Shown here piece after piece: positions 14,463 to 20,372 of a stretch of 64,000 nucleotides of DNA. Where the stretch lies: assembly GCA_029256085.1 (NCBI GenBank), contig JAQSYP010000002.1, positions 343,342-407,341 on the forward strand. Direction: 5' to 3'. The first letter of the stretch is position 1, and each line of letters starts with the position of its first letter. The notes below the pieces were generated by a model, which ran no database searches, had not been told where the DNA came from, and saw only the letters and a program-made list of their open reading frames with translations. The stretch is from Bacillales bacterium. GTDB taxonomy: Bacteria > Bacillota > Bacilli > CAJFEE01. The translations under genes were made by a program, and so were the position numbers.

Positions 14463-15857
14463 TTATAAAAACTTCCTACTCACACTCTTCCCATCATACG
14501 TAAATAGCACTTGCCTGTTTTCAACAGTTGATTCGAGACTAACTGCTCTTCCCCAAAGTTGTTGAATGTTAGGAAGCACTTTTTCCAAATATTTAACGTC
14601 TAACTCTATTCCTTCATAATAATGCTTTAGGTAAAGCTCTCCATTTTTTAGATAATCTCCATCTTCTACTAAAATATATGGGAAGCCACCATTAACTCGC
14701 ATACCAACAAGTTGATCCCTAACATTCTCCCACTCTTTATCTACTATTTTATATTCACGACCTTGGCGTTGGAACAGATACATATCCTCTCGCATCACGA
14801 GATCTTTTGTTAAATAGTTTCGTAGAAATGAAGTGTCACCCTCAATTTCACGCACCTCAAAAATTTTCTCACGACCGCTGCCAGGTTTCACGCCGTTCTT
14901 AATCATCTCAGGAGTTGGATTATTCCAACGTTCTTCAATATCTTTATAGATTTGAATTCCTAAGTAATATGGGTTAATTGATGTCTTCGATGGCTGCACA
15001 ACACCCGCGTTTAACTTCGAGTATTCGACAGCTTCACTTGTTGTTAAGTCCAGTTCTTGTAGGATTTTCTGATGCCAGTAGGAAGCCCAGCCCTCATTCA
15101 TGATCTTAGTCTCCAGTTGCGGCCAGAAATAAAGCATCTCTTCACGCATCATTGTTAGGATGTCGCGTTGCCAGTCTTCAAGATCTTTACTAAACTCCTC
15201 AATGAATAGCAACAAATCCTTTTCAGGTCGTGGTGGAAATTTCTTTTTCTTCTCACCGTTAAGCTGCTTCTTTTTTACGTTACGTTTATCCAAATCCCAT
15301 AAATCATCGAACTCAGTTCTTTTCTGAATCTCTACTTCTTCTTCCTCATCCCAACTATAATCTAACTTCATCAAAGATGGGTCCACGTGCTCCTGAATTG
15401 ATAACACCGCATCTATAAATCTTTCAACCTTTTTTTGCCCATAACGGACCTCGTAATCTCTTATTCGATCCGCTGTTGCTGACATACTTTCAACCATATC
15501 CCGATTCGTCTTAGAAAACCGTACATTATTTTTGAAAAAATCACAGTGAGCTAACACGTGGGCAACGATTAGTTTATTTTGAATTAAGGAATTAGTGTCT
15601 AATAAGAACGCATAGCACGGATTTGAATTGATAACTAGCTCATAAATCTTACTCAGTCCAATATCGTATTGCATTTTCATCTTATGGAACTGTTTACCGA
15701 AGCTCCAATGCGAAAACCGTGTTGGCATTCCATATGCGCCAATTGTATATAAAACCTCTGCAGGACAGACTTCATATCTCATTGGAAAGAAATCTAAGCC
15801 AAAGCCCTTTGCGATCTCCGTAATTTCACCAATTGATCGTTCAAGCTCATTCATCAT
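14463..15857 (-). CDS. spoVR: Stage V sporulation protein R
   Basis: [29 protein letters not shown] and [17 protein letters not shown] signatures. Confidence 0.95.
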
Positions 15858-15990
15858 AAAATCAGCCCCCTTCTTATTCAGTTTATGAAAAGTAAGTTGT
15901 TGGCATGATTTTTAATAATAATTTTAGTCTACTCTAAACTTCCTATAATGATGGCCCATTAACTCATTCAAAAAGAACGTAATTTATTGG

Positions 15991-16036
15991 ATGTAAAAAA
16001 AGTAACAATTTGAATGATTGTTACTTTTTTTTACAT
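15991..16036 (-). terminator. Intrinsic terminator of the arsR-dsrE-tsoY-like operon
   Basis: ATGTAAAAAAAGTAACAAT...ATTGTTACTTTTTTTTACAT inverted repeat about 20 nt past the read-through stop at 16059. Confidence 0.65.
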
Positions 16037-16058
16037 GAGTCACTTGATTTGTTTAACA

Positions 16059-17225
16059 TTACAAAGACCTTGCCTTCCCGATTGGCATATTGTGTTGTGC
16101 TAGAATTTCTAACTTATTAGTTTTATGAAATTTCATAAATATTAAAGCGTAAAAAATTACCGCTATTACAATACTGACATAGTTCAACACTTCAAGAATT
16201 GCTATAGGATAATATAGCCCTTGAACATAAACTCCCAAAACTTGGGAGCCTACTAGCGCTCAAACCATCGACCATTGCGTTGGAGAAAATTGACTCTTGT
16301 AAAAATCTTTTCTTAGATAATCAAATATCAAATATATTGTAAATATTCCCCAACCTATTGTAATTAGATAAGACAAATTAATTATTAAATATAAACTAAT
16401 ATTTAATTTAAAAGAATAAACACCTTCCAAATATAGAAGAATTCTGTAAAAGCTTAGACCTAAAAGGCAAGTAATTGGAATTACTAAAAGATATGCTGGT
16501 AAAACGGCATTATCAGGTAAATTACCATTTCTAAACTGTACAAATATCAATAAAAATAATTTTGTAATAAACATAATAATACCTATGCATATAAGAAACA
16601 ATGATGCGACCGAAGCTATAGTAGAGATAAAATTATTTTCAGACATGTAAGCTATTCCAGTACCTGTCAAACTTACAAGACCAATAGCAAATACATCGAG
16701 AAGCCATACAAAATTCATTTTGTTAATATCAATTGGATTTGTGAATAATATTTTTGTTACCTTGAACTCTAATATCAAAAGTGATATCAAAAGTAATCCA
16801 AATAGCACTAGTGAAGGCATCATCATTTTTTGAATTGAGATGTTTGGTATAAAAAATGCTAAGGGACCCCAGATTACATTTATGGTCATTGCTATAGAAG
16901 CTATTGGAACAAATATTGAAATATTCATCAGCGGATTTTCTAGAAATTCTTTTAATTTGCTTTTTGTTTTTAACCACATAACAAATCCATAAAGTAGTAT
17001 ACCTATTAAAATTAAATTAATAGATGAAAATAAAAACATAATTACTATTAAAAGCATATACGTGGCATCTTGTATTAAGCTTAAATCAGACCAGTTTATG
17101 TTAAAAAAATTTATTAATCCGCCTCCATGTGGTAATGAAAACTGAAGATAATTAAACGCCATTAATGAAATACCTCCAGCAGCAAGAGCTGATTGAAACT
17201 TAATCGGAGCAAACTGTAATTTCAT
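16059..17225 (-). CDS. TsoY-like multi-pass membrane protein; candidate selenoprotein (in-frame TGA 16260..16262)
   Basis: FQSALAAGGISL N-terminal motif; after ...TQWSMV-TGA the frame stays open for 66 codons with two more TM segments to TAA 16059; 388 aa in total. Confidence 0.7.
16231..16249 (-). promoter_or_regulatory. Bacterial SECIS-like hairpin
   Basis: GCTCCCAA-GTT-TTGGGAGT starting 10 nt after the UGA, with G in the apical loop. Confidence 0.55.
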
Positions 17226-17242
17226 CGTTTTTCTCTCCTTTA

Positions 17243-17563
17243 TTAAAAAGTAACTATTTTATCAGCCCATTCAACCATTTCAACACAATCATTCATAGTT
17301 GAGATTGGACATGCAGAATCTTCATCCATCTTTCTTGATTTCAAGCAAGTACCACAAGCCATTAATTGTCCGTTATTAAATTCAAATTTTTTCATTTCAT
17401 CGACAACATTGAATTTAGGATGTTGTATATTTTCACATTCAACAGCTTCACCCATTAGGAAAAGTTTCACTTCGTTCTCCCTTGATAGGGCTGTATTTGC
17501 AAATCGAAATGCATTCCAAGCTTTTTCCTCTTCTTTTGTTTCTAAAATAATAGCTAACTTCAT
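17243..17563 (-). CDS. DsrE/DsrF-like sulfur relay protein
   Basis: AWNAFRFANTAL, LFLMGEAVE, ACGTCLKSR, CPISTM...ADKIVTF. Confidence 0.9.
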   Translation of the reverse strand: MKLAIILETKEEEKAWNAFRFANTALSRENEVKLFLMGEAVECENIQHPKFNVVDEMKKFEFNNGQLMACGTCLKSRKMDEDSACPISTMNDCVEMVEWADKIVTF

Positions 17564-17575
17564 AAATTATCCCCC

Positions 17576-18235
17576 TTAATTTGTTTCACTCATGAATTTT
17601 TCCCAATCATGGACACTATTCTCTAGTCTAATTGCATTAATTCCTTTTGTTTTTAAAATCTCAACAGCCTCAACAGCCATCAAACAAAAAGGACCCCTAC
17701 AATATGCGACAACATTGCAGTTTACTGGTAGTATTGATAACTTCTGTTCTAATTCTTCAATTGGTATTGAAACTGCACCATCAATATGAGCTACATCATA
17801 TTCTTCCTTTGGTCTCACGTCTAACAGTAAAATCTCTCCATTATCCATTCTCTCTTTTAGTTCTAAAAGTGTTATCCCCTCCAATTCTAGACTCTTGTTT
17901 AAAAATTCTTCTTTAATTTGCTGAACTTGAACTAAATTTTTTTCAGATAGTTTATGAAGGGAATTCAAAAAATCAATAGTCTCTGAATCACCTAACTTAT
18001 AAATTACAAAGTTACCTTGTTTTCTGAACTTTACTAATCTTGCATTATGAAGTATTTGTAAGTGCTGTGAAACATTAGCAACAGACATTCCTGTACCTTT
18101 GGCTAATGATTCAACAGATTTAGGACTTTGTGTTAAAAGGTCAAGTATCTCTAACCTTTTGGGGCTAGACAAACATTTTCCAATCCGTGCAAATTCCTGA
18201 TATAGCATATCTTTTAATGTTCTCTCTTCTAACAT
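17576..18235 (-). CDS. ArsR-family regulator fused to a rhodanese domain
   Basis: GAGGTG RBS, ATG 18235; LSSPKRLEILDLL...NVSQHLQIL wHTH; LLDVRP..EY...HIDGA and YCRG rhodanese motifs. Confidence 0.92.
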   Translation of the reverse strand: MLEERTLKDMLYQEFARIGKCLSSPKRLEILDLLTQSPKSVESLAKGTGMSVANVSQHLQILHNARLVKFRKQGNFVIYKLGDSETIDFLNSLHKLSEKNLVQVQQIKEEFLNKSLELEGITLLELKERMDNGEILLLDVRPKEEYDVAHIDGAVSIPIEELEQKLSILPVNCNVVAYCRGPFCLMAVEAVEILKTKGINAIRLENSVHDWEKFMSETN

Positions 18236-18247
18236 ATAAATCACCTC

Positions 18248-18306
18248 AACTATTCAATTGTTTTGTTGAATAGTTTAATTATATTTACATTATATTTTAT
18301 TAGCAA
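18248..18306 (-). promoter_or_regulatory. Sigma-A promoter with ArsR-type operator
   Basis: TTGCTA-17-TATAAT; perfect inverted repeat AACTATTCAA-8-TTGAATAGTT at 18248..18275 between -10 and RBS. Confidence 0.75.
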
Positions 18307-18524
18307 CAAATTAGTTCTGATTTTTAATAATAACTTTCAATATTTTGTCCAATAAAAAAAGAACTAAATTCGCAAAAAATTTGGTTCTTTTGTTTCACCT
18401 ACAGATTTTCGAGAAACTTCTTTTTCTTATCAGAAAAAATTCTAAAAAATAAAATATTATATAATACTATTAAATACATTATTTAAAAGAGCTAGTAAAT
18501 TATATAACCATTTAGGAGAATCCA

Positions 18525-19133
18525 ATGAATAACAATAGTAACATTAAAAAATATAAAATACTTTCGCATGTTTATGATAGTATTATGGGTATTAAAATTT
18601 TTAGAACAGCACGGAAAAAAGCAATATCATTATTACCATTAAAAAGTAATGATGAAATACTACTTGTTGGCGTTGGTACAGGGGAAGATCTTCAGTTTCT
18701 TCCGGAAAATGTATTAATAACAGGAATTGATTTATCAAATGATATGTTGAAAGTCGCTAACAAAAAAATAAACGGCAAAAATGTTATACTACTTCAAATG
18801 AATGCCGAAGACCTTGAATTTAGTGATAAGACGTTTAACTGCGTAATTTTGAACCTAATATTAAGCGTAGCGGAAAATCCGAAAGATGTGATAAAAGAGG
18901 CATTACGTGTATTAACTGATGATGGAACAATATTAATCTTTGATAAATTTTTAGAAAATAAGAAACAACCAAGCTTTTTTAGAAGTTTGTTAAATATTAT
19001 AACTAGAAGTATTGGAACTGATATTAATCGGAATTTAGATGATATTTTATACGGTTTACCACTTGAGATTATTAGAGAGGAAAACTCTATTTTGAATGGA
19101 AGTTATAAGATAATTTTAATAAAAAAAATATAA
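18525..19133 (+). CDS. Class I SAM-dependent methyltransferase (PmtA-like)
   Basis: ILLVGVGTG motif I; GIDLS; MNAEDLEF. Confidence 0.9.
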   Translation: MNNNSNIKKYKILSHVYDSIMGIKIFRTARKKAISLLPLKSNDEILLVGVGTGEDLQFLPENVLITGIDLSNDMLKVANKKINGKNVILLQMNAEDLEFSDKTFNCVILNLILSVAENPKDVIKEALRVLTDDGTILIFDKFLENKKQPSFFRSLLNIITRSIGTDINRNLDDILYGLPLEIIREENSILNGSYKIILIKKI

Positions 19134-19161
19134 ACGTTAACAAAAAAGGAGTTCCAAGAAA

Positions 19162-19362
19162 ATGGTAATCCAATCAAATATGTCTCCAAAGTCGATAGTT
19201 GAAGTATGGAAACATACTGCTGCAACTTTCCATGAATACAACATCCCTATTATTGATCAACCTCTAGAATTTTTTGTTGATAGAGAAAAAATTTCTTCTT
19301 TAATGATGGAGTTAAATCGTTTGGTAGGAAGTTCCCCAGCTACATGTGTACATGGCGGATGA
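19162..19362 (+). CDS. Small protein ending in CxxGG
   Basis: AAGGGAG RBS; follows the methyltransferase closely; C-terminus TCVHGG. Confidence 0.7.
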   Translation: MVIQSNMSPKSIVEVWKHTAATFHEYNIPIIDQPLEFFVDREKISSLMMELNRLVGSSPATCVHGG

Positions 19363-19400
19363 CAACTCACCTCTAAAGAGAAGTAGTTTACTTCTAAAAA

Positions 19401-20372
19401 TTAATTCTCCATGGAACTTAAATCTAAAAAATACCTTCGCCCTTTATAAGTTCCAGTGCTTTTCAAATTTATTTTTGCTAATAAGTTATAAGTAGATCTA
19501 GAACTTAAGTTTAAAAATTCACTAATCTCAGAGTTTGAGAAGTTTTGATCAAAAAGTAAAGTATAGTCTTTAATAGCTTGTATATGTGCATCTTTTGAAA
19601 CAGTATCACATTTTTGGCAATGCCAACGTCCATACTCCCTTTTCATGATGTTTTCGCACTTTGGACAAATGACCCCTTTAATAATATCTTCACTATTCAA
19701 TTCAAACTTTTTTACTTTGTCCTCTATTAAAGGTGAATGGGCTTTTAGCAAGGTTTTATTTAATTTTTTTATTACTGGATTACTTATTATATCTCTATTA
19801 TGGGATTGGCTCATACTATTAATTTTTCCGATCAACATAGTCGGTCTAATAATATTTTCGTAATATATGGGACTTGTTGCTACTGTTTTAATTATTGAAT
19901 TTTGATTCGTGAAAACAACGAGGGTTTTGATTGGTATTTGTGGGAATTTATTTTTGCTTAGCCAGTTATTTAATTGATACTTCTGATGAATTACCTGCCG
20001 AATTGGATCAGGATATATTTCTTCCTTATCTTTGTACATTTTAATGAGTTGGTTATATTTCTCATCAATTATTATTTCACCTATATAATTTTTAGTTTCG
20101 ATTATAAGCAGAAATCCATAAGTAATAATTAAAAAATCTAGTTGAAAAGCACCATTTTCACCTTCAATTCTTAAACTTTGAAAAATATAGAAGTTCCACT
20201 GATCTAGAAAATTCAGGTAATAGTCTAAAGATTGTTCACCTTTGATTCCTGATATGCACATTTTTAAATCGTCCTCAACTTTACTTCTTTTACTATGACT
20301 AATTGGTATTCTTCGAAGAATTGCCTCCAATTTTTGCTGACTTATTGAATTTCCTCTCTTTTTAACTATCAA
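19401..20372 (-). CDS. NERD nuclease-related domain protein with Zn ribbon and C-terminal HTH
   Basis: G..GE, FQLDFL, IIETKNY NERD motifs; CPKC...CQKC. Confidence 0.88.
   Translation of the reverse strand: MIVKKRGNSISQQKLEAILRRIPISHSKRSKVEDDLKMCISGIKGEQSLDYYLNFLDQWNFYIFQSLRIEGENGAFQLDFLIITYGFLLIIETKNYIGEIIIDEKYNQLIKMYKDKEEIYPDPIRQVIHQKYQLNNWLSKNKFPQIPIKTLVVFTNQNSIIKTVATSPIYYENIIRPTMLIGKINSMSQSHNRDIISNPVIKKLNKTLLKAHSPLIEDKVKKFELNSEDIIKGVICPKCENIMKREYGRWHCQKCDTVSKDAHIQAIKDYTLLFDQNFSNSEISEFLNLSSRSTYNLLAKINLKSTGTYKGRRYFLDLSSMEN

Follow-up and report, generated by a model that had tools for sequence, protein, structure and literature searches.

The gene tsoY, which lies in a 64,000-nucleotide window of a Bacillales genome (the whole stretch of DNA that was analysed), is very probably a working gene whose in-frame UGA (16262..16260) is predicted to be decoded as selenocysteine (Sec). 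Judged by sequence, it is a typical representative of a selenoprotein family that has been described before, TsoY, and not a new kind of gene. The preliminary description of this locus had announced a hidden selenoprotein; the selenoprotein stands, but it is hardly hidden, as the model NF047643 exists already and tsoY scores twice its cut-off. Table 1 of the review PMC13188914 lists TsoY under the motif UxxV and credits it to Haft and Tolstoy (2025, mSystems), and the Sec-site motif found here, U-A-L-V, matches the entry in that table. On the authority of that review, the family, its Sec position and its curated model are already known. The value of the present gene lies in annotation: most public gene calls of the TsoY family stop at the UGA, and the last two membrane helices as well as the catalytic-looking Sec are therefore absent from those records. 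Furthermore, the compact three-gene context in a small genome offers a setting in which the role of the helix-9 Sec in a TehA-type channel can be tested. The coordinates of all features are collected in Table 1.

Table 1. Features of the tsoY locus, the nearby small ORF and the Sec genes of the host genome (window positions unless a contig is named).
Feature	Position	Strand	Details
tsoY, full recoded CDS	16059..17225	(-)	388 aa with predicted Sec322; TAA 16061..16059; NF047643 match
UGA predicted to be read as Sec (residue 322, motif U-A-L-V)	16260..16262	(-)	TGA or Cys at the aligned site in 67 loci
Putative SECIS hairpin	16227..16253; core stem 16250..16230; loop GUU 16241..16239	(-)	inside codons V-G-S-Q-V-L-G-V-Y
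A/U-rich hairpin and U run after TAA	15991..16036	(-)	z -3.92; 0/200 shuffles as good
DsrE/DsrF-like small protein gene	17243..17563	(-)	PF02635, 55 bits; 17 nt upstream of tsoY
ArsR/SmtB-type regulator fused to rhodanese, first operon gene	17576..18244	(-)	HTH_5 and Rhodanese
Perfect 8-bp inverted repeat, 8-nt spacer	18250..18273		between promoter match and regulator start; read from sequence
Sigma-70-like promoter match (TTGCTA, 17 nt spacer, TATAAT)	18278..18306	(-)	upstream of regulator; 10/12 matches
Small ORF	19162..19386	(+)	66 codons 19162..19359, UGA 19360-19362, 7 codons, TAG 19384..19386
Small-ORF hairpin	19379-19395	(+)	3' of UGA 19360-19362; related loci L109-L120
selB/tRNA-Sec, selA	contig C15 16720-18781 and 29324-30691		profile searches
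selD	contig C4 774373-775296		profile searches

Under translation table 11, the tsoY ORF (17225..16260, minus strand) starts with an ATG at 17225 and ends at the TGA after 321 aa, with the C-terminus QWSMV; the preliminary description had given no strand. Past this codon the frame stays open for 66 further codons, as the preliminary description had stated, until a TAA is reached. The read-through product matches the NCBIfam equivalog NF047643 ("selenoprotein TsoY") with 506.9 bits against a cut-off of 250 and over its full length (positions 1-366 of 366), and without read-through the model is covered at positions 1-321 of 366 only. A profile search of the whole genome led to the same place, with 506.8 bits and one in-frame TGA. 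Additionally, the product reaches the gathering score of Pfam SLAC1 (PF03595; 32.1 bits against 27.9); the read-through form spans positions 2-328 of the 331 in this profile and the 321-aa form only positions 2-286.

The fate of the same codon in relatives bears directly on how it is read. A word-indexed protein search returned 224 TsoY relatives, and lengths were read for the best 120 of the 224. Among these best 120, 105 have lengths of 298-348 aa, as products cut at the TGA do, and this genome's own 321-aa entry is one of them; the remaining 15 are 373-388 aa long. An alignment of the 15 long forms, which writes U as C and thus does not tell Sec forms from Cys forms, has C at the UGA column in 15/15 full-length homologues, followed by a near-invariant A-L-V-G-S-Q-V-L-G. 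Four short calls in the same alignment end exactly at the Val preceding the UGA column. The codon itself was read in 71 genomic loci encoding TsoY relatives, 67 of which cover the site; the other four (L070, L087, L091 and L093) fall short of it owing to contig ends or a disrupted frame. Five of the 67 have a Cys codon, namely TGC in L030, TGT in L052 and L068, and Cys in the distant relatives L089 and L092 (26-27% identity), and 62 have TGA. As had been anticipated from the first reading of the locus, which also mentioned Cys or Sec near the C-terminus of TsoY proteins, the UGA column of the homologues is occupied by Sec (TGA) or Cys and the sequence beyond it is conserved, and no other stop codon, Trp or other residue occurs at the site in any of the 67 covering loci, nor does a homologue end there.

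These data also bear on the possibility that the TGA is a true stop which arose by nonsense mutation, leaving a truncated relic with a downstream frame that is open by recency or chance. Gene callers do end the product at 321 aa, and the collection entry for the host does likewise. However, the same TGA recurs in most of the covering loci across several phyla (the TGA-bearing loci span Bacillota, Actinomycetota, Desulfobacterota and others), the 66-codon tail fits the TsoY profile to its last position, and this tail shares 41-64% identity with homologues overall. A relic is extremely unlikely in view of this conservation.

Selenocysteine insertion in bacteria is directed by a hairpin, the SECIS element, and the bacterial examples (E. 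coli fdhF and the bSECISearch model) are located within the coding region, immediately 3' of the UGA, as is the hairpin in tsoY. The hairpin that the preliminary description had placed 10 nt after the UGA, with a G in the loop, was found again (16253..16227, loop GUU). Its first nucleotide is the 10th after the UGA, and it has nine core pairs and 12 pairs in this window. Its minimum free energy is -19.8 kcal/mol compared with -9.1 +/- 2.4 kcal/mol in shuffles (z -4.51), a value matched by none of the 200 shuffles. Its apical loop lies about 18 nt downstream of the UGA and contains G and U, like that of the known bacterial elements. The tsoY hairpin differs from them in having a loop of 3 nt only, or 5 nt if the closing A-U pair opens. 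No Rfam match was obtained in 15500..20000, and there is no curated RNA model against which the hairpin could be scored.

For the comparative analysis, the window was aligned with 57 TGA loci to give 58 Sec forms; L088 was left out for its Ns, along with four loci that were resolved later. In this alignment, 87.9% of the cells are paired, a share that drops to 34-55% once the partners are shifted by 1-3 columns. The core is kept by all 58 Sec forms (9/9 pairs in 31, 8/9 in 24 and 7/9 in 3), and their minimum free energies average -11.1 kcal/mol, spanning -15.5 to -6.8. At the loop-closing position, A-U (37), G-C (9) and G-U (9) replace one another. Both sides change in 3 of the 12 pairs, a count that was reached by 11 of 500 shuffles, and the covariation score lies above all 500 shuffles. 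Limited covariation is to be expected here, the stem lying in strongly conserved coding sequence whose peptide is invariant. Moreover, the stem codons are near-fixed in the 58 Sec forms, with GGC for Gly in 54, TCC (51) or TCT (7) for Ser, and TTG (48) or CTG (10) for Leu. The hairpin is lost (-3.5, -3.2 and 0.0 kcal/mol) in all three close Cys forms, whose codons specify an identical peptide and which have CTT or TTA at the stem Leu where Sec forms have TTG or CTG; this contrast comes from three Cys loci, two of them close relatives, and is therefore suggestive, not statistical. The early reading of the structure as a SECIS element agrees with these comparisons, which support that the hairpin 3' of the UGA behaves as such an element. 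SelB with Sec-tRNA(Sec) would bind the hairpin and bring Sec to the ribosome at the UGA, and after Sec insertion translation would run through the 66 codons to the TAA, yielding the 388-residue TsoY.

The host genome is equipped for such decoding. In the assembly (2.63 Mb in 17 contigs, rated 100% complete), profile searches placed all four of selA, selB, selC and selD above cut-off, which settles the sel-gene check that had been proposed for this locus. The selA gene scores 556 bits and selB 372 bits; the tRNA-Sec (selC) beside selB scores 64.4 bits and is confirmed by ARAGORN with the anticodon TCA. The selD gene (393 bits) has one in-frame TGA itself, corresponding to Sec within a G-U-G-C-K loop. 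Given selA, selB, tRNA-Sec and a Sec-containing selD, the organism makes and uses Sec. The tRNA-Sec gene is immediately upstream of selB and encoded on the other strand; selA is about 10 kb away, and a rhodanese-like ORF is found just past selA (C15:32013-32315).

At the level of the class, an even sample of 401 genomes including the host genome was searched. TsoY was above cut-off in 2 of the 401, with one TGA in each, and selA in 98 of the 401 genomes and 64 of the 145 genera; this selA carriage fits sporadic Sec use. The host's taxonomic family and order are represented by only two genomes in the collection, and profile searches found selA present and TsoY absent in the sister genome of the order. 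One genome of the class (G171) has two adjacent genes that are weakly TsoY-like (contig C291, 7326-8414 and 9157-10257; 59-67 bits, below cut-off), one of them with an in-frame TGA; this may be a paralogue with Sec within the broader TsoY family.

Against this background, it can be asked whether the UGA is passed mainly by near-cognate read-through, with Trp or Cys inserted, rather than by SelB-dependent Sec insertion. Low-level read-through of UGA by tRNA-Trp is known in Bacillus subtilis. However, the site is occupied by TGA or a Cys codon throughout the family and never by Trp, the hairpin is kept only with TGA, and the host has the full Sec machinery, including a selD that is itself Sec-containing. 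Furthermore, the other TsoY holder of the class sample has selA too. Near-cognate read-through as the main route is thus very unlikely, and Sec insertion remains the preferred reading of the codon.

A structural model of the full product was built with AlphaFold2 on 37 sequences. It has a mean pLDDT of 90.3, a pTM of 0.89 and ten long membrane helices. Two further transmembrane segments had been claimed for the read-through extension, and this is roughly what the model shows, the extension comprising most of the helix at 315-337 and all of the helix at 342-378. The predicted Sec322 is placed in the ninth helix (315-337) and Cys253 in the seventh (239-270), and both residues are invariant across the 37 TsoY sequences. 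In Foldseek, the top 14 matches at E-values up to 0.001 were all TehA or SLAC1-type chains, including the solved structures 3m72, 3m73 and 7en0, with TM-scores by target of 0.70-0.75 at 11-13% identity. A profile search against the sequences of solved structures returned no sequence-level match of TsoY to any solved chain. According to the model, TsoY has the TehA/SLAC1 ten-helix fold, which it shares with the channels of PF03595, and the Pfam match lies just over the gathering score. TsoY is unlike these channels in its low identity and in having Sec322 and Cys253 in helices 9 and 7, residues that are not known to have a counterpart in TehA or SLAC1.

The model and the Cys forms also speak to a reading with two products, in which a functional eight-helix protein of 321 aa would be accompanied by an independent 59-aa membrane peptide. 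A TTG-initiated ORF does exist in the same frame (16238..16059). However, the Cys forms of 373-388 aa are single continuous proteins, the TTG at 16238 falls within the SECIS stem, and helices 9 and 10 are integral to the TehA-like ten-helix bundle of the high-confidence model. The chance that two separate products are made is vanishingly small.

In the window, tsoY is the last gene of a three-gene cluster on the minus strand, following a regulator gene of the ArsR-rhodanese type and a DsrE-like gene, with gaps of 12 and 17 nt. The regulator matches NF033788 with 76.8 bits and TsoR (NF045707) with 54.4 bits, which is below the cut-off of 115. Since the annotated GTG start at 18244 overlaps a GAGG, translation of the regulator probably begins at the ATG at 18235, which stands after this GAGG. 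The promoter match upstream of the regulator is a match to the consensus only, and such matches are no commoner here than in shuffles. The 8-bp inverted repeat may serve as a candidate operator. At the other end of the cluster, a terminator had been claimed after the second stop rather than the first. An A/U-rich hairpin is indeed present (16036..15991) and is the likely end of the operon transcript, but a consensus terminator scan, which needs three G-C pairs, found none in 15800..18600; the placement of the claim stands and a terminator of the consensus type does not.

Similar neighbours recur in part of the family. A DsrE-like relative is present in 28 of the 71 tsoY loci. Full-length identity of 57-75% is seen for 15 of the 28, and of these 15 there are 13 whose end lies 15-440 nt upstream of tsoY. 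An ArsR-type neighbour occurs in 25 of the 71 loci, with the full rhodanese fusion in eight. In G039, the closest TsoY holder found in the class sample, a search within 1.5 kb of the gene yielded neither a DsrE-like nor an ArsR neighbour. The "three selenoprotein operon" owes its name to the genes TsoA, TsoB and TsoC, without which the host tsoY stands; it sits instead behind the DsrE-like gene and the ArsR-rhodanese fusion. TsoB gave no match above cut-off in the host genome. TsoA and TsoC gave no match there either, but the same searches were silent in every control genome too, and their silence is therefore weak evidence. The NF047643 equivalog model does not require a Tso gene neighbourhood.

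Two further genes flank the cluster. The next gene downstream of the tsoY operon is a SpoVR gene (14463..15857, minus strand; 502.6 bits), and its presence marks the host as an endospore former. Divergent from the operon is a gene for a class I SAM-dependent methyltransferase (18525..19133, plus strand; Methyltransf_11, 65 bits). The pairing of a methyltransferase with tsoY recalls TehA-TehB. A role of this enzyme as a TehB-like partner of TsoY was considered and dropped, since a similar gene is near tsoY in only 1 of the 71 loci.

A function can be proposed from the fold and the gene neighbours, which are the whole basis of the anion-transport proposal. TsoY may move a reactive anion of sulfur or selenium (for example sulfite, thiosulfate, a hydropersulfide or selenite), with Sec322 as a redox-active or ligand-binding residue of the pore, a proposal that we put forward with slightly less than even confidence. 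In TehA and SLAC1, the pore is lined by odd-numbered helices, so that Cys253 and Sec322 would both sit on pore-lining helices. Sec322 would act in the pore possibly paired with Cys253. The rhodanese cysteine of the ArsR-rhodanese regulator would serve to sense the same sulfur or selenium chemistry, and the role of the DsrE-like protein would be to pass sulfur or selenium on. An analogy is offered by the YeeE/YedE selenoproteins in the table of review PMC13188914, which are membrane transporters of sulfur or selenium compounds with Sec inside the membrane domain, as TsoY would be. The YeeE/YedE thiosulfate-transporter family (PF04143) is unrelated to TsoY in fold and family, however, and the likeness is one of analogy only. 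Several TsoY holders are named as selenate- or arsenate-respiring isolates, a hint only, which may bear on the substrate. One selenate- and arsenate-respiring isolate has two tsoY copies on different contigs (L026 and L027), each with a TGA and an adjacent DsrE-like gene.

A small ORF located 29 nt past the methyltransferase gene is a second selenoprotein candidate in the window. As called, it ends with T-C-V-H-G-G before a TGA, and 9/9 relatives from the word search end at the same G-G. HMMER returned 97 matches from 1.84 billion representatives; among the best 45, 43 stop at the Gly before the TGA. No Cys form was found, as no match in this HMMER search continues through the site with Cys. 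In the class sample, 14 of the 401 genomes have a match, and 12 of the 14 matches read through one or two TGAs. The C-terminus in these TGA holders has the form ...G-S-S-x-x-T-C-x-x-G-G-U followed by 2-8 residues. The selA gene is present in 11 of the 12 TGA holders compared with 98 of 401 genomes class-wide, a comparison that is no formal test because the genomes are related and not independent. The twelfth holder, G372, has a 42-codon C-terminal fragment only.

An RNA hairpin accompanies this UGA as well, starting 13-18 nt after it in 8/8 full-length loci. When a seven-pair helix was given by hand for a 12-row alignment, 80.5% of the cells were paired, compared with 39-52% when slid; both partners vary in four of the pairs, and none of 500 shuffles reaches the covariation score. 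RNAalifold found no consensus among the small-ORF hairpins, three of the MAFFT rows being out of register, and the hairpin in the window alone is not significant (z -1.3). On balance, the sequence comparisons favour the small ORF being a true selenoprotein, albeit by a modest measure. That it is both a true selenoprotein and undescribed is a tentative proposal, with the chances somewhat against it. With similar reserve, the locus could be regarded as one with two selenoproteins, in which the small ORF would be the first protein recognised from a Sec-only family that is so far undescribed, with about 70 residues and a distant resemblance to DUF1858/ScdA_N.

The 119-family table of review PMC13188914 lists a DUF1858 selenoprotein with CxxU and none with the architecture of the small ORF. 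The surveys cited in that review find Sec sites via Cys-containing homologues, and this reliance, together with the lack of any Cys form among the matches, may explain why the small family was missed. The observation outweighs tsoY in importance; it suggests a widespread Bacilli family in which every member apparently ends just after Sec. If the candidate is true, TsoY, the DsrE-like carrier, the rhodanese regulator, the methyltransferase and the small protein could form an island dedicated to selenium or sulfur handling. Conserved neighbours were also sought around the small ORF and the idea was dropped: no gene of the window recurs within 1.5 kb in the 12 loci, and 39 neighbouring ORFs show a mixed set of Pfam domains. 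No model of Pfam or NCBIfam reaches threshold for the small ORF itself. Several members of the small-protein group give sub-threshold matches to DUF1858 or ScdA_N, and one distant relative that has no Sec passes ScdA_N.
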